From a bacterium (GTDB lineage: Bacteria; JAGOBX01), in the NCBI GenBank assembly GCA_036733285.1, contig DAINAU010000001.1, positions 18,954 to 82,953 of the forward strand: a DNA stretch of 64,000 nucleotides. Direction: 5' to 3'. Below are positions 18,108 through 38,526 of the stretch, piece by piece. How positions within the stretch are numbered: the first letter of the stretch is position 1; each line of letters opens with the position of its first letter. The position numbers were made by a program, and so were the translations under genes. Under the pieces are notes generated by a model, which was not told the DNA's origin, did not search any database, and worked only from the letters and a program-made list of their open reading frames with translations.

Positions 18108-20195
18108 TTATGATTTATACACAAACCTCTTATCAACCGGCAATTCCACCGAAAATTTCACTCCGTTTTTTTCGTTTTTAAAATTAATTTTCCCGTTATG
18201 TTCTTCCATTATTTTTTGAGAGATTGTCAGACCAAGCCCGATTCCAGTGGATTTTGTCGTAAAAAAAGGATTGAAAATCTTGCTCTTTAAAGTCTCGTCG
18301 ATGTTTCCGCCGTTATTGAAAATTTCCACTATGCAAACCGTGTATTCGTTAGCCGTAAGATTATTGTCCTTAATCCTGACGTTTATTTCTATAAACGGAT
18401 CGCTTATTTCTTTCAAAGCGTCAACCGCGTTTAATAAAATATTTAAAAATACCCTGTTCAATTTATCCTCGTCGTAATTAACCAAAATTTTGTGCGCGCA
18501 ATATTTTCTTTCTAACTTAATGTTGTTGTCTTCCATTGATTTTCGAACGTATAACAGAGATTTTTCCAGCGTTTCAATTAAATTTTTGTTCTGTTTTTTT
18601 AATTGTATTTTATTAGTAAAATTCAAAAATTCCGTGACTATCTTATTTAAATCGTTAACTCCCTCGACTATTTTCGAGGCAATCTTGCTTTTTTCGGAAT
18701 CCGCCGAATCTGATAAATCTTTTTCAAGCAGAGACGCAAATCCCTCTATTGAACCGAGCGGATTGCGTATCTCGTGAGCGAGTCCGGCCGCCATTTCTCC
18801 TAACGAAGCGAGTTTGTCCCTGCGGTTCAATTCTTCTTCCATCTCCTTCATTTCAGTTATATCGTTGAATGACGCTATCATTCCTTTAATCAAACCGTAT
18901 TCGGTCTTAAGTTTTACAGTCGTCAATTCTATTTGCTTCACTTCAAGATTTTTTGCCACAAGCTGCGTCCTGTGATAAAACATATATTCTTCATTTTCTA
19001 TTTTTGTCTGTATCTGTTTATCGGGAAAAATATATATGTCCTGTCCGAGAGTTTTATCTAATAATTCGTTTTCATTATCGAATTTTAATAAAAGCAGAGC
19101 TTGCGTGTTTATGAATTTAATCTTTAATTCTTTGTCGAGAATCATAATTCCCAGCGGCAAATTTTTGAAAGTAAAATATAAATAATCTTTTATGCTTTCT
19201 ATTCTTTTATATAACGCCCTGTTTTTAAAAAGCAATTCAAGATATACTTTTACCGTTTTTATCAATTCGACGTCGCTAACGTTAAATGAATTTTTTTCAT
19301 AAAGTTTTGTCAAATAAATTATTAAATAACGTTCGTTTTCTATATGAACGTTTACCTTTAAAATATTCCTGATTTTTTTTAAATCCGCCGTTGATACCGC
19401 TTTATCCTTCGGACCAAACAATTCCGGTTCCTGAGATACTCTTATTATCCCTTTATTCAGCGCCGGAATATCTAAATCCTTTTCGTATTTATCGATTATT
19501 TCTCCCGTCATATTATCGTATACTATTCCGGCTCCGGCGTTGCAATTCATAATCTTAACTATTGAATTTGTCGTTACTTTTAATATTGATACAAGTTCGT
19601 AATCGAGTTTTAAACTATTTTTTATTTCATTTAATGTTACTATTTTTGACATCCTCTCGTATGCTCTTTGTTCCGCTTTCCTGTTTTCTTCGCTTGAAAA
19701 ACCGAGCATTATCGCGATTATCAATAAAGCTATAAATCTCGGCAGATGAGCTTGAACCTGCGGTCCGAATAAAATCACGTTTCTGGTTACCGGGTCAGGA
19801 CTTAAGTTATAAAGAATAAATATGAAAAGCGTGGTGCCGACGCTTCCGCGTATCCCGAAACTCATTGCTCCAGATATAATAGGTATGAAATATAAAAAGA
19901 AAAACGAAATGCTGTTATCGCCGGAATAGGTAACAGTAAAATGAACAAAAAAAACATAAATTTCAAGCAATAAAAGATTCGCTTTCGCGGATGGCAAAAT
20001 CGTTTTTAAAAACGGATCTATTATAAAAAATAAAAGCGCTATGATTAAAAACAAATAAAAATATTGAGTCGATAATCCGGTAAAAAAATTTAAAATTATA
20101 TAGAGAAGTATTACCGTCGCAAAAAGCGATATAAATAAAAATAAACCGCTTACTTCGCGGTTTTTCTTTAATATCCATTCTAAATATTTTTTCAT
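18108..20195 (-). CDS. Polytopic membrane sensor histidine kinase (PAS-HisKA-HATPase_c).
   Basis: Multiple N-terminal TM helices, a PAS-like region, an H-box (HEIRNPLGSIEGF), and N and G boxes (NAVDAL, GIGLGL). Confidence 0.8.
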   Translation of the reverse strand: MKKYLEWILKKNREVSGLFLFISLFATVILLYIILNFFTGLSTQYFYLFLIIALLFFIIDPFLKTILPSAKANLLLLEIYVFFVHFTVTYSGDNSISFFFLYFIPIISGAMSFGIRGSVGTTLFIFILYNLSPDPVTRNVILFGPQVQAHLPRFIALLIIAIMLGFSSEENRKAEQRAYERMSKIVTLNEIKNSLKLDYELVSILKVTTNSIVKIMNCNAGAGIVYDNMTGEIIDKYEKDLDIPALNKGIIRVSQEPELFGPKDKAVSTADLKKIRNILKVNVHIENERYLIIYLTKLYEKNSFNVSDVELIKTVKVYLELLFKNRALYKRIESIKDYLYFTFKNLPLGIMILDKELKIKFINTQALLLLKFDNENELLDKTLGQDIYIFPDKQIQTKIENEEYMFYHRTQLVAKNLEVKQIELTTVKLKTEYGLIKGMIASFNDITEMKEMEEELNRRDKLASLGEMAAGLAHEIRNPLGSIEGFASLLEKDLSDSADSEKSKIASKIVEGVNDLNKIVTEFLNFTNKIQLKKQNKNLIETLEKSLLYVRKSMEDNNIKLERKYCAHKILVNYDEDKLNRVFLNILLNAVDALKEISDPFIEINVRIKDNNLTANEYTVCIVEIFNNGGNIDETLKSKIFNPFFTTKSTGIGLGLTISQKIMEEHNGKINFKNEKNGVKFSVELPVDKRFVYKS

Positions 20196-21127
20196 TTGAA
20201 ATGTTTGTTAATCAAATCGATTTTCTCGCGCATTATATTATAATCGGAATCCTCCGCCGGGGCGTAACCTTCAAGTCCGCCCGCAAGCGAATTCAAAATA
20301 TTAGAGTTTTTCAAATTAATAAATGCGTCAAGCAATTTTTTTTTCAAATCCTTATTGTCTATAATATTTTTCCCTATCGCTATCGGGTCGCCGGGAATAT
20401 CGTCCGTTTCCTGTAATACCACTATATTTTTGACTTTATCGGGCGATAAATATTTTTCTACCGCGCCTTGATAACAAGCTCCTATTTCCGCGCCTTTCGA
20501 TGATATTATTTTCACAACGTTATCGTGTCCCTTTACAAATTTTACGCTTAAATTTTTTTCAATATCCGCCCCTGATTTGATTATGTCCGCAGCCGGAAAT
20601 AAAAAACCCGACGTCGAATATCTGTCCGTAAAAACCGTTTTAATTTTCTCTCTCTTCTTCAAATCCTCCAGTGATTTTATTCCAGAATCTTTATGCGTGA
20701 TTATTATTCCCTTATAAGAAGGTTTCCCGTTTCGTATTGATTTAACCAGCGGAAGCGTGTTGTTTTTTTTATGCGATTCCACGTATGAATAAGCCCCCAT
20801 TGACGCCAAATCATATTCGATTCCGGTTTTATCAACTATATTTTCGTAATTCGACGCAAATTTTAATATCACCGGCATTTCAATCTGAGCGTGAAGATAA
20901 CTGATTAATGGTTTCATTATGTTTTGTAAATCCATTGCGTTGCTCGAAGGAACAACGGCAAAATTAAGTTTCTGAATCCCCGTGTCGCTTTCAATTTGCT
21001 CCGTTGATTTTTTCGATGCGCCTACTGCGTCTGTTACGTTGTTATCGCCAACATTTCCCGAACAACCCCAAAAAAACAACATAGACAAAATTAACATATT
21101 TTTTTTTATATTTGATATGCCGGACAT
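20192..21127 (-). CDS. Lipoprotein of the PhnD/SsuA-like phosphonate/phosphate-binding family (periplasmic substrate-binding domain).
   Basis: Lipobox ...FFWGCSG. The TVFTDRYSTSGFLFP segment resembles the PhnD binding family. The stop overlaps the histidine-kinase start by 4 bp. Confidence 0.55.
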   Translation of the reverse strand: MSGISNIKKNMLILSMLFFWGCSGNVGDNNVTDAVGASKKSTEQIESDTGIQKLNFAVVPSSNAMDLQNIMKPLISYLHAQIEMPVILKFASNYENIVDKTGIEYDLASMGAYSYVESHKKNNTLPLVKSIRNGKPSYKGIIITHKDSGIKSLEDLKKREKIKTVFTDRYSTSGFLFPAADIIKSGADIEKNLSVKFVKGHDNVVKIISSKGAEIGACYQGAVEKYLSPDKVKNIVVLQETDDIPGDPIAIGKNIIDNKDLKKKLLDAFINLKNSNILNSLAGGLEGYAPAEDSDYNIMREKIDLINKHFK

Positions 21128-21455
21128 ATAATCGCCTCCGAATTAATTTTCTTTGATTATCTCAAATTTCAGTTCTTTTGTCAATATAATTTATCCCTTA
21201 GCCGAATTTCAAGCTCGGCCAGAAATTGTTTCAAAAATTTTAATAAACTTTTCTGGCGCCATTTCAGTTATTTATGTGGAAAGGAAATTTTAACATTAAC
21301 TTACAACGCTTTTTTTTAATGTAAAATATATAAAATTCAGATACCGTCGCTGAAAGTTGAATCAAGTTGCAAAGAGCGTCGAATTTCTCATTGCCGTAGA
21401 TAAAATCTATGGAAACAAAATGAAATAACGACGATTCGGAAAACAAACCTGAAAG

Positions 21456-21665
21456 GTTTGAATTTCACATAACCGTAGGTGAACTGCGCGCAGCGCAGGA
21501 AAACCTACGGAACGAAAAACACAAAATCGCTCGACCCTGAATAAGGGTCGAATTTCAAATTGTCTTAAAATTCAACCCCTTCAGGGTTGATAGATTTGGT
21601 TGGTTTTCTTCCCGCAGGTTGAATGCGCTCCGCGCAGGCTACCTGCGGTTATGTAAAATTCAACC
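21456..21665. repeat. Roughly 210-bp GC-rich imperfect palindromic (foldback, MITE-like) element with about 55-bp inverted arms and two internal mirrored hairpins.
   Basis: The left arm is ggtttgaatttcacataaccgtaggtgaactgcgcgcagcgcagg. The right arm reverse complement is ggttgaattttacataaccgcaggtagcctgcgcggagcgca, about 80% identical. Each arm folds on itself (CCGTAGGT...ACCTACGG and CCGCAGGT...ACCTGCGG). The inner hairpins CGACCCtgaataaGGGTCG and TCAACCCcttcAGGGTTGA are inverted copies of each other. Confidence 0.5.
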
Positions 21666-22004
21666 GCTTTCGCGGTTACAGATTATTAAAACTTTTTGTT
21701 TTTAAGCTCTCGGAAATTGTTTCAATAATTTTAATTTATTAGAACAATTTCTGACTGCGTCCCCGCGACTTGTTTTTGTCGTCTGAATTTGATTGACTTC
21801 TTGCCTTAATTAATATAACTTTTTATCAATTAGCTTTTATAAAAAATATATTAACAGTTTAATTTGATTATAATTAATCCCGAATAATTCATTAGAGGCA
21901 GCGAGAAGTTTCTTAAAAATTAAAATGTTATATTGCGATTGAAATTCGCAATTTATATGAAAACTTCAATTGCATTTTTTAGATTAATACAACAGGAAAA
22001 AAAT

Positions 22005-24227
22005 ATGAATACTAACAAACTAAAACCTTATATTAAATTCGACGATGATAAAAAAAATATTTTTTATATCGCGCAAAATAAAAAATACCGGTATGCCGAC
22101 CCTGAAGAACAAATACGAAGCAAGGCGTATCTTGAATTAATCAATTACGGTTACGAGCCGAAACGCATTGATTTTGAAGTCGGTATTCCGCATAGAACTC
22201 CGAATATACTTGCGGATATTGTCGTTTATAACGATGATGATTTGAAAGACCCGCATATTGTCGTTGAATGTAAAAAACCGGAAGTATCCGAAGGCGAATT
22301 CAAGCAGGCGGTTGAACAGGGATTCGGAAACGCAAATTCGCTCAAAGCAAATTATCTTTGGATTACTTCGGGAATCAAAAACGAATATTTTAACGTAAAA
22401 GATTTTCCGTCAATGGAACGCGATGCAAACCGTTTATCGGATATCCCGCGTTTTGGTCAAAAAAAAATCGATAAAGCGCAGTTTTACAAAGGCGGAATAA
22501 ACGATAAAAGCGAACAGCGTAAAGATTTAACGACTTTAAACGAAAACGAATTAACCCGAATTTTTAAGCAGGCGCACGATGCGCTTTGGGCTGGCGGCAA
22601 ACGCAATCCTTCGGAAGCGTTCGACGAATTCGATAAACTTATTTTTTGTAAAATTTGGGATGAAAAAAAATTGCGTAAAAACGGAGAACCCTACGATTTT
22701 CAGGTTTTTAGCGGCGAGAAAAACGAACTGCTTTTGAAACGCATTCAAACAATTTACGACAAAGGCAAGGAAAGGGACCCTGAAGTTTTTAAAGATAATA
22801 TCCGGCTGAATCCATACGAACTTGAAACAGTAGTAAGTTATCTTGCCGGAATAAATTTAAGCGATACCGACCTTGACAGCAAAGGCAGGGCGTTTGAAAC
22901 ATTTATGGGAAGTTTTTTCCGCGGCGATTTTGGCGCTTTTTTTACGCCGCGTCCTATTGTAAAGTTTATTATTGAAAGTTTGCCGGTAACTAACGAAGAT
23001 ATTGTTTTGGATCCGTCCTGCGGCAGCGGCGGCTTTTTGCTATACGCGCTTGATAAAGTCCGGCGCGCCGCTGATAAAATGTCTGATGACGGCTATTTTA
23101 AAAAAGACAGCTCTAAACACTATAATTTTTGGCATAATTTTGCCGAATCAAATTTATTTGGAATTGAAATTTCCGAAAGCATTGCCCGCACCGCTAAAAT
23201 GAATATGATAATTCACGACGACGGACATACAAATGTCGTATCGCACGATGGACTTGACAGTATTTACTGGATGCGCGAAAAAACAAAAAATAAGGGTTTT
23301 GCGAAAAATAAATTTGATTATATTATCACAAATCCGCCTTTTGGTTCGTCGATTCAGTCGTCGGCTAAAGCGTATGTTAAAGAATACGATTTGGGCAAAA
23401 AAAATTATGAATGGATAGAGTTAAAATTAAAAAATAAAAATCCGAATAAAGACGAAGTTCGGGAGAGGCAAAGCTCTGAAGTTTTGTTTATCGAGCAGTG
23501 CTATAATTTTCTTAAACCGGGCGGAATACTCGCAATGGTAATACCCGACGGCATTTTGACAAATTCAAGTTTACAGTATGTCCGCGGCTGGATTGAAGAG
23601 CATTACAGGATTATTGCGGTTGTGTCAATGCCCCAGTCAGCTTTTCAGGCGACTGGCGCGGGCGTTAAAAGCTCGGTTATTTTTCTTGAAAAATATGAAG
23701 AATCCGAGACCGCGGCTATCCAAAAAATAAAAATTGAATTGCAGGATAAACTATTTGAAAACAAAAAATACGGTCCCTCGATTGAAAAAATTGAACGCGA
23801 AAAAAAAGATACGCTGAAAAATAATTTTGCGAAAATTAAAGAAATTAACGAATCGCTTGATAATCATTTAAAAGCCCTTGAAAATCAAGGAAATATTGAT
23901 AAATCTAAAAAATGCGGACTCGAAAAAAATGCAAAAGATAAAATCAAACAAATTGAAAAATCTGAAGAATACGCCGATTGGCGATGCCGCATTACAGACG
24001 AATTCAACGAGCGGATAAACGCTATTAAAGAAAATCTTCAGGAAGAATTTATCGAATCCGTGAAAAAGAAAATTACGGATTATCCTGTGTTTATGGCGAT
24101 TGCGGAAGACATCGGCTATGACGCGGCAGGCAGACCGACAAATAAAAACGAACTCGAAGATATTGCTAAAGAACTTTTAGCTTTTATCGAATCTGTAAAA
24201 AAAGGAACTGATTCTTTTTTCGCATAA
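22005..24227 (+). CDS. Fused restriction endonuclease and N6-adenine DNA methyltransferase (HsdR_N/Mrr-like PD-(D/E)xK domain plus gamma-class MTase plus coiled-coil C-terminal extension). BcgI-A-like Type IIB/IIG R-M subunit.
   Basis: The likely start is the ATG at 22005 (AGGAAA upstream); the ORF-track frame begins at 21933. The N-terminus has ADIVVYNDD...HIVVECKKP (D...E-x-K). The MTase motif I is LDPSCGSGGFLLYA and motif IV is IITNPPFGSS. An approximately 170-aa Lys/Glu-rich helical tail follows. Confidence 0.7.
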   Translation: MNTNKLKPYIKFDDDKKNIFYIAQNKKYRYADPEEQIRSKAYLELINYGYEPKRIDFEVGIPHRTPNILADIVVYNDDDLKDPHIVVECKKPEVSEGEFKQAVEQGFGNANSLKANYLWITSGIKNEYFNVKDFPSMERDANRLSDIPRFGQKKIDKAQFYKGGINDKSEQRKDLTTLNENELTRIFKQAHDALWAGGKRNPSEAFDEFDKLIFCKIWDEKKLRKNGEPYDFQVFSGEKNELLLKRIQTIYDKGKERDPEVFKDNIRLNPYELETVVSYLAGINLSDTDLDSKGRAFETFMGSFFRGDFGAFFTPRPIVKFIIESLPVTNEDIVLDPSCGSGGFLLYALDKVRRAADKMSDDGYFKKDSSKHYNFWHNFAESNLFGIEISESIARTAKMNMIIHDDGHTNVVSHDGLDSIYWMREKTKNKGFAKNKFDYIITNPPFGSSIQSSAKAYVKEYDLGKKNYEWIELKLKNKNPNKDEVRERQSSEVLFIEQCYNFLKPGGILAMVIPDGILTNSSLQYVRGWIEEHYRIIAVVSMPQSAFQATGAGVKSSVIFLEKYEESETAAIQKIKIELQDKLFENKKYGPSIEKIEREKKDTLKNNFAKIKEINESLDNHLKALENQGNIDKSKKCGLEKNAKDKIKQIEKSEEYADWRCRITDEFNERINAIKENLQEEFIESVKKKITDYPVFMAIAEDIGYDAAGRPTNKNELEDIAKELLAFIESVKKGTDSFFA

Positions 24228-38371: not shown

Positions 38372-38526
38372 AAATCAAAACAAATCATAATCGTAACAAT
38401 ATTTTTGAAAGCGGTTTAAGAATAAACTCCTCCCGCGAAAGCGATAGAATTTCAAAAAATAATCTCGTTTTATTGTTCAGATGTTGTAATCAAACTGTTA
38501 AAACGGTTTGAAAAAGGCGTATTTTT

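Follow-up and report, generated by a model that had tools for sequence, protein, structure and literature searches.

The sequence analysed here, called the window below, is a 64-kb stretch of DNA (positions 1-64,000, to which all plain coordinates refer) from an uncultured anaerobic-digester bacterium with 33% GC. An intergenic foldback in this window, an imperfect dyad of approximately 235 bp (21444-21678), is the subject of this analysis. We consider it likely that the foldback and the sequence to its left form a cluster of the kind described as REP (repetitive extragenic palindrome) doublets forming hairpins (REPINs) or bacterial interspersed mosaic elements (BIMEs), made up of two full inverted units and a third, decayed one, all from a REP-like family that is dispersed between genes and has its own Y1 REPtron. 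By analogy with characterized Y1 enzymes, the family probably owes its spread to one IS200-like transposase gene that has these repeats on both of its sides.

Dyad, repeat units and their folding

A first-pass annotation of this DNA had described a near-perfect dyad with arms of about 55 bp that were about 80% identical. The foldback is real, although imperfect, and the measured arms differ from that description. A repeat search gave arms of 84 nt each (21458-21541 and 21580-21663) that are 73% complementary, and complementarity reached 85% only over a core of 40 nt. The annotation had proposed RNA folding as a check. Folded as RNA, a 251-nt stretch at this locus gave -116 kcal/mol on the + strand (z = -12.8) and -127 kcal/mol on the - strand (z = -14.6), compared to approximately -60 kcal/mol for dinucleotide-preserving shuffles; folded as DNA, it gave -66.7 compared to -29 for shuffles (z = -10.5). 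The dyad is real and well past chance, and the coincidental symmetry that the annotation had allowed for can be set aside. The element had also been called GC-rich. Its GC content is indeed raised, but modestly (0.39-0.42, compared to 0.33 for the whole window).

When the arms are aligned as same-sense copies, the dyad resolves into two inverted copies, approximately 73% identical, of a unit of about 120 nt. The unit opens with a small hairpin (hpS1) and a linker (GAATTTYACATAA, also given as (G)AATTTYACATAA). The large hairpin (hp2) comes next; its outer stem, CCGYAGGT/ACCTRCGG, is 8 bp long and encloses a GC stem. An A-rich spacer then leads to another small hairpin (hpS2, consensus CRACCC..GGGTYG), and the tail AATTTYA closes the unit. 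Both small hairpins of a unit, hpS1 and hpS2, have the same orientation, with a GAATTTYA tail after each. The tails of the two full units, A and B, face each other over an 8-nt centre, and the decayed unit, C, abuts the left arm. The features are as follows (E values are from nhmmer, for unit C against the family profile):

21346-21443, + strand: unit C, decayed (E = 0.009)
21346-21380, + strand: unit C small hairpin, GTCGCT..AGCGTC, with an enlarged loop
21381-21393, + strand: unit C tail, GAATTTCTCATTG
21394-21412, + strand: unit C short large hairpin, CCGTAGAT-AAA-ATCTATGG
after 21412 and reaching unit B, + strand: unit C A-rich spacer
21444-21557, + strand: unit B, the left arm (E = 1e-33)
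21444-21460, + strand: unit B hpS1, CAAACC-TGAAA-GGTTTG
21461-21472, + strand: unit B linker, AATTTCACATAA
21473-21510, + strand: unit B hp2 outer stem, CCGTAGGT/ACCTACGG
21484-21498, + strand: unit B hp2 inner stem, CTGCGC-GCA-GCGCAG
21511-21531, + strand: unit B spacer
21532-21550, + strand: unit B hpS2, CGACCC-TGAATAA-GGGTCG
21551-21557, + strand: unit B tail, AATTTCA
21558-21565, no strand: doublet centre, AATTGTCT, between the facing tails
21566-21678, - strand: unit A, the right arm (E = 1e-31)
21678-21661, - strand: unit A hpS1, TAACCGC-GAAA-GCGGTTG
21660-21649, - strand: unit A linker, AATTTTACATAA
21648-21612, - strand: unit A hp2, CCGCAGGT..ACCTGCGG
21611-21590, - strand: unit A spacer
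21589-21573, - strand: unit A hpS2, CAACCC-TGAAG-GGGTTG
21572-21566, - strand: unit A tail, AATTTTA

The hairpins that the annotation had named are all present: the two hp2 hairpins (21473-21510 and 21612-21648) and the two internal ones, which are the hpS2 hairpins of the two arms (21532-21550 and 21573-21589). The partial copy that it had placed near 21374 turned out to be a genuine third unit (fragment 21375-21398, nhmmer E = 0.009). Folded alone as single-stranded DNA, unit B forms exactly its three hairpins (z = -8.2), unit A forms three hairpins (z = -5.9), and the fold of unit C is weakly better than that of shuffles (z = -2.5).

Units A and B have compensatory differences in every stem, and the same pattern extends to the family. 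In an alignment of 38 distinct units with four stems and 25 base pairs, 94.4% of the paired cells were paired, compared to 24-36% when the partner columns were slid, and 13 of the 25 pairs had changes on both sides. The observed values were reached by none of 500 shuffles on four of five measures and by one of 500 on the fifth. Because the copies are related, significance is overstated by the shuffle control, and more weight belongs to the slid control and to the double changes that distinguish the subtypes. This comparison indicates that the four stems are maintained by compensatory changes and that the structure is under selection.

Very stable folds and covarying stems could also be produced by a structured RNA, which the annotation had offered as an alternative. 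The units would then be convergent small RNAs, or cis-acting stabilizer or terminator hairpins, and the family would be one of RNA genes and not a DNA element. A consensus scan called two terminator-like hairpins on the - strand, and REPs of other bacteria, when co-transcribed, affect mRNA stability and termination. The remaining evidence points the other way. The annotation had suggested a search of Rfam, and Rfam 15 gave no matches in the window at the gathering threshold; at permissive thresholds there were only sub-threshold matches to long-hairpin microRNA models, which are meaningless. Mismatches in the stems comprised 22 G·T and 27 A·C. Since G·T is no commoner than A·C, there is no sign of wobble tolerance that is specific to RNA or to one strand. 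The units lie in both orientations to their neighbouring genes and in all intergenic contexts, and a physical link to a DNA transposase gene has been kept across lineages (see below). The structured RNA proposed in the annotation thus found no support from Rfam, mismatch frequencies or orientation, and we regard an RNA gene family as very unlikely.

Two further readings of the hairpins were considered and rejected. A sponge for CsrA/RsmA would have GGA loops, and the loop varies among GCA, GGA, GAA and GTA in different copies. An integron attC reading of GTTGAAT/ATTCAAC fails on three counts: the words occur on a single strand, their spacing does not fit, and cassettes are absent.

Family members elsewhere in the host

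We searched metagenome contigs with one degenerate 21-mer, covering the linker and the hp2 foot, and obtained 48 loci (these and the other loci examined are numbered with L below). A profile search identified 24 of the 48 as true members, all from one group of anaerobic-digester metagenomes; the remaining loci were chance matches from unrelated environments. Once overlapping contigs were merged, approximately 22 separate sites remained, which together contain more than 50 units; these counts are a lower bound from a single exact seed, and we infer that the sites belong to one genome. The question raised in the annotation of whether the element is unique in its genome is answered by these extragenic copies: it is not.

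The composition of the contigs is consistent with a single host. The long true loci (at least 10 kb) had tetranucleotide correlations with the window of 0.975-0.993, and the repeat-rich, 6.7-kb L047 had a correlation of 0.913. Correlations for the chance loci were 0.91 or lower, except for L029 (0.995), which probably comes from the same organism as the window, judging by this value. The match in composition indicates that the family loci come from the window's organism or from one very close to it. The window itself is carried by a 104-kb metagenome contig; across several digester samples, seven contigs have an identical sequence in this intergenic region. Assemblies of this host break at the repeat sites, as membership in a repeat family would explain.

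Every site lies between genes, whether tandem, convergent or divergent, with units in either orientation. There are singlets (L055, L011, L016, L038 and others), inverted doublets (intact in the window and L009; decayed in L054, L036 and L038), and arrays in which 7 to 13 or more units lie in mixed orientation (L019/L022 and L047). Units with hpS1, linker and hp2 foot nearly identical to those of unit A occur in L055, L037, L009, L036, L038 and L047, and the short-hairpin variant seen in unit C is also found ahead of type-B units in the L019 and L047 arrays. The hp2 apex varies greatly, from absent to a 45-nt insert. An AT-rich insert of approximately 45 nt was observed in the hp2 apex at L049:1794-1946 and L010:855-1008. 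The presence of this insert in some units and the lack of any apex in others indicate that the apex tolerates insertion and deletion.

The doublet appears to be a unit of copying in its own right. The doublets of the window and L009 are collinear and 82% identical over approximately 240 bp, and their flanks are unrelated. They have the same order of subtypes (B forward, A reverse) and a common centre; this centre, GAATTT[C/A]AAATTGTCTT[A/G]AAATTC, is also found in the decayed doublets of L038, L054 and L036. The two arms inside one doublet are only 73% alike. Since the identity between sites (82%) is greater than that between the arms of a doublet (73%), the doublet would have been copied whole, which is the pattern that defines REPINs; two intact doublets are known.

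A related comparison involves a third locus. L009:510-874 and L024:2293-2659 are 94% identical over a shared 367-bp flank and arm A. In L024 the match ends inside the hpS2 loop, and arm B is missing. Strain polymorphism could account for the difference, or the two sites could be paralogous, with a breakpoint at the hairpin.

There were no target-site duplications at the flanks of the singlets (L055, L011, L016, L038), where the annotation had suggested looking for them. A strict miniature inverted-repeat transposable element (MITE), with terminal inverted repeats, target-site duplication and a DDE-type parent, was rejected on this basis. The annotation had proposed a mobile element of a REP or MITE family; the REP/REPIN part of that proposal is upheld by the approximately 22 sites and the link to a Y1 gene, and the strict MITE part is not. 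A CRISPR array was likewise rejected: the intervals are conserved and structured, with a period that varies from 78 to 91 nt, orientations are mixed, and cas genes were not observed in the neighbourhood of the arrays.

Outside this group of contigs, a scan of viral contigs gave no matches to the family, and blastn against plasmids and phages gave none. A scan of species-representative genomes gave 31 matches, nearly all due to chance, and did not recover the genome of the host. Only L075 and L083, both from Bacteroidetes metagenome-assembled genomes (MAGs), had related arrays. L075 has a tandem array of four units with the same architecture and different, compensated stems; no Y1 gene was found in the 8 kb available there.

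The closest available relative of the host is a MAG labelled Candidatus Dependentiae bacterium by NCBI (GCA_017999075.1, L106). It has the operon found to the left of the cluster in the window in the same order (substrate-binding protein, kinase, PNPase, onward), with 68-71% protein identity. Upstream of its substrate-binding-protein gene (L106 1-485) there is no unit and there are no restriction-modification genes, and a rubredoxin-like gene is the divergent neighbour instead. The lack of units in the relative is consistent with a gain in the lineage of the window; the different neighbour means that this is not a clean empty site.

The Y1 transposase gene and the spread of the units

Inside the repeat cluster of L047, positions 756-1198 encode a protein of 147 amino acids that matches Pfam Y1_Tnp (E = 7e-22) and scores 60.9 bits against NCBIfam transpos_IS200 (cut-off 55). 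It has the motifs DHIH, WQ and YIKNQEEHH, and its best matches among solved structures are ISDra2 and IS608 TnpA. A unit on the + strand ends 11 nt before the start codon and a unit on the - strand begins at the stop codon, so that the 3' ends of both inverted units face the gene. The doublet in the window appears to be this REPtron arrangement with the gene replaced by the 8-nt centre.

The exact protein is present in the samples that contain the window contig. The gene is found in one genomic context, on one contig per sample, without tnpB; the window itself contains no Y1 gene. The contigs that carry the gene are short and broken in repeats, except for the 6.7-kb contig with L047. Coverage of this contig (10.6x) is in line with that of the host's other contigs within this assembly (7-14x), and this points to one copy of the gene.

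The association of this type of gene with hairpin units extends to other bacteria. There are more than 1000 homologues of the Y1 protein. The nearest are 60-65% identical, and those with organism names are mostly from Bacteroidota. The closest, L101 (65% identity), has one full inverted unit on each side with the 3' ends toward the gene, and the flanking unit consists of hpS1, AAATTCAATTAA, hp2, spacer, hpS2 and tail. Six further homologues, with approximately 60% identity and mostly from Bacteroidota (L093, from Pedobacter; L096; L097/L098; L099/L100; L103), are flanked by arrays and inverted copies of a small GC hairpin with an A/T tail (GAACATGAATAA, TAAATATGAATAA or AACTTGATTAA); a large hairpin starting with CC follows the tail in two of these six. 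In all, seven homologues have equivalent flanking units, and in several the start codon lies in the tail or just after it.

In L096, L099, L100 and L103, the Y1 gene is directly upstream of genes for an Omp85-family protein and D-Ala-D-Ala ligase (Ddl), and in L093 the Omp85/Ddl position is two genes away. This conserved position suggests vertical inheritance and not transposition. Homologues were found in 2 of 72,556 plasmid records. By these measures the distribution of the homologues looks housekeeping-like, as it is for REP-associated tyrosine transposases (RAYTs).

Other sequences were observed near some of these genes. Upstream of the Pedobacter gene (L093:2590-2720) there are five tandem 33-nt repeats with the hairpin CTAGGT-TGC-ACCTAG, which would be a second type of repeat in that REPtron-like region. 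A more distant Y1 gene of the Y---Q--HH type (45% identity), on a Bernardetia chromid (NZ_CP147018.1; L107:19700-19990), has ahead of it another type of hairpin, GTTGC-AGA-GCAAC, in four copies that form long inverted repeats. A fragment beside the repeat cluster in L019 (positions 167-292) resembles the 23S rRNA-intervening-sequence protein (PF05635, E = 7e-4, below the Pfam cut-off), and L097 contains a full PF05635 gene (positions 1-354), 2 kb upstream of its Y1 gene; this proximity may be a coincidence.

The IS608/ISDra2 and E. coli TnpA-REP paradigms are the source of the mechanism that we propose. The enzyme would bind the unit hairpins in single-stranded DNA and would cut and rejoin within the A/T-rich linker or tail, where the sequence (GAATTTYA / CATAA) is conserved. 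Units and doublets would thereby be copied to new intergenic sites, and insertion beside existing tails would build arrays. Such insertion would explain arrays in which each hpS-GAATTTYA is directly followed by CATAACCG-hp2.

Given this protein, the units could alternatively be miniature derivatives of an active IS200/IS605 insertion sequence, like palindrome-associated transposable elements (PATEs), with hpS1 and hpS2 as the left- and right-end hairpins on one strand and a Y1 gene that mobilizes itself. The protein passes the NCBIfam IS200/IS605 cut-off and its best structure matches are to TnpA of ISDra2 and IS608. The directly oriented hpS1 and hpS2, each with GAATTTYA, resemble subterminal ends with a conserved cleavage or target word, and the lack of target-site duplications is as expected for Y1 elements. 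However, the units that flank the gene are inverted and not direct, and the gene has single-copy-like coverage and one genomic context. Its homologues are at a conserved chromosomal Omp85/Ddl position in several Bacteroidota and almost never on plasmids, and enzymes of its subclass, TnpAY1 subclass 1.2, have a low copy number and lack the properties of insertion sequences (PMC6006769). On balance, it seems unlikely that these units derive from an active insertion sequence.

Several results have to be weighed against the favoured reading, a REPIN-type family with its own Y1 gene. The protein does not pass NCBIfam REP_Tyr_transpos (24.2 bits, cut-off 80), and it belongs to TnpAY1 subclass 1.2, which is listed as 'REP: no' (PMC6006769). 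The canonical 5' GT[AG]G foot is absent. The foot of hp2 reads CCGTAGG, CCGCAGG, CCATAGG or CCACAGG, with the variable bases paired in the stem, and the conserved unpaired word of the units is GAATTTYA(C)ATAA. Only two intact doublets were recovered. No clean pair of filled and empty sites was found, the neighbour gene in the nearest relative also being different. The copy number of the family and the single-copy status of the transposase gene rest on metagenome contigs, composition and coverage.

Setting of the cluster and comparison with known systems

The cluster is located in an 878-bp divergent intergenic region (21128-22004). On the - strand side are the gene for a phosphonate-type substrate-binding protein (20192-21127) and then that for a PAS/HisKA histidine kinase; on the + strand side are the gene for a fused HSDR_N/N6_Mtase/Eco57I-type restriction-modification protein (22005-24227) and that for a specificity subunit. 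This domain content agrees with the sensor-kinase operon and restriction-modification genes named in the annotation. The best promoter-like site for the substrate-binding-protein/kinase operon matches 11 of 12 consensus positions (- strand, 21184 to 21156).

Two related palindromes of approximately 40 bp bracket the repeat cluster. They are outside the repeat family:

21218-21257, no strand: left flanking palindrome, containing the 24-nt repeat copy at 21221-21244
21710-21754, no strand: right flanking palindrome, containing the 24-nt repeat copy at 21712-21735

The palindromes share a 24-nt direct repeat, AGAAATTGTTTCAAAAATTTTAAT, whose copies are 491 bp apart and identical at 23 of 24 bases. 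Among all the loci fetched, the repeat and the palindromes were found at this locus only. The left palindrome is directly upstream of the best promoter-like site. These sequences could be operator sites that have come to lie, by duplication, at both ends of the cluster, or they could be traces left by the arrival of the cluster or of the restriction-modification genes.

Given this setting, the foldback could be a protein-binding site or cruciform, specific to this locus, that controls the divergent sensor-kinase and restriction-modification promoters. Its position in the divergent region, between the promoter-like site and the restriction-modification gene, is what such a site would have. Yet the same units are present at approximately 22 unrelated sites, the orthologous operon of the nearest relative has no such sequence, and the repeats that are specific to this locus are the separate 24-nt direct repeats and palindromes (21218-21257 and 21710-21754). 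The copy number largely refutes a locus-specific operator, and we consider it the least probable of the explanations discussed here. Any effect of a REPIN-type cluster on the two divergent promoters is putative.

Beyond this cluster, no other member of the family was detected in the window. The annotation had listed CGAATTTCAAA-type motifs at 21205, 38445 and 47359. A 13-mer scan of the window found six matches to such words, compared to 2.5 expected, and four of the six were inside the element; short CGAATTTCAAA and GAATTTCAAA words elsewhere in the window are at chance level and were rejected as family copies. A weak solo small hairpin plus tail (CCCGCGAAAGCGATAGAATTTCAA) was observed at 38428-38455, in a 685-bp intergenic region. 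Its match to the family profile (E = 0.2) is indistinguishable from chance.

As a genome feature the cluster is ordinary, a conspicuous foldback that is explained by membership in a selfish or domesticated repeat family. It would be a mistake to annotate such a foldback as an RNA gene or an operator.

The systems to which the family is most similar are the REPs, BIMEs and REPINs of E. coli and Pseudomonas, which together with their RAYT (TnpA-REP) form REPtrons (Nunvar 2010; Bertels and Rainey 2011; Ton-Hoang 2012; via PMC6006769 and PMC5581495). In both cases there are short extragenic palindromes in tens of copies or more, found singly, in inverted doublets that fold into long hairpins, and in clusters of mixed orientation. 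A single-copy Y1 HUH gene lies between inverted repeats of its own family, the doublet behaves as a copied unit, and there are no target-site duplications. In contrast to a REP, which is one hairpin of 20-40 nt, the unit described here is about 120 nt long and has three hairpins. It lacks the 5' GT[AG]G foot, and the single-stranded word conserved in it is the A/T-rich GAATTTYA / CATAA, on the 3' side of the small hairpin. The enzyme, with YIKNQEEHH where a class-2 TnpA-REP has YI..NP, falls outside that class.

The enzyme itself fits TnpAY1 subclass 1.2 (Quentin et al. 2018), whose members have approximately 148 amino acids and the motifs DH[IV]H, WQ and YIKNQKEHH, and are described as having no associated REPs, generally no terminal hairpins, a low copy number and no known role (PMC6006769). 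The length of 147 amino acids, the motifs, the low copy number and the closest homologues, mostly from Bacteroidota, all agree with this subclass. Unlike the published members, the gene described here and its seven homologues are embedded in hairpin-repeat units, the units are dispersed in the genome, and the host is outside the Bacteroidetes and Cyanobacteria. A limited full-text search found no later paper that revisits the description of subclass 1.2 as REP-free.

With IS200/IS605 elements and their miniature derivatives the system has in common a Y1 HUH transposase, subterminal hairpins in single-stranded DNA (the recognition being putative here), and the lack of DDE-type inverted-repeat ends and of target-site duplication. 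It differs in that the gene is apparently single-copy, its flanks are inverted, there is no tnpB, and the repeats far outnumber the gene. Multiple near-identical copies of a gene with its ends, and left- and right-end hairpins on the same strand around the gene, are expected of IS200/IS605 and are not seen here, where the flanking units are inverted. Like classical MITEs, the units are small, non-coding, multi-copy and able to form foldbacks. Unlike classical MITEs, they have no target-site duplication and no DDE parent, and their 'terminal inverted repeats' are whole structured units that are also found alone and in direct arrays.

Compared to these systems, what appears to be new, from the sequences compared here, is a REP/REPIN-REPtron that is atypical twice over: it lacks the GTAG foot and has an enzyme of subclass 1.2. 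A broader proposal, to which we give about an even chance and which is based on eight inspected loci, is that the enzymes of subclass 1.2 are the RAYT equivalents of a distinct and widespread class of REPs, in the Bacteroidota and at least one unrelated candidate lineage. This class would be characterized by a bipartite or tripartite unit with a small GC hairpin, an A/T-rich tag of 11-13 nt that ends in TAA and a large hairpin that starts with CC, in REPIN-like doublets and arrays. Should the association hold, a so far 'orphan' HUH Y1 subclass gains a substrate and a probable function, and REP/REPIN biology would no longer be limited to GTAG repeats of the Proteobacteria type but would include Bacteroidota-type lineages, whose recognition element is organized differently. 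The family would then also provide a compact new system for studies of hairpin-guided cutting and joining of single-stranded DNA.

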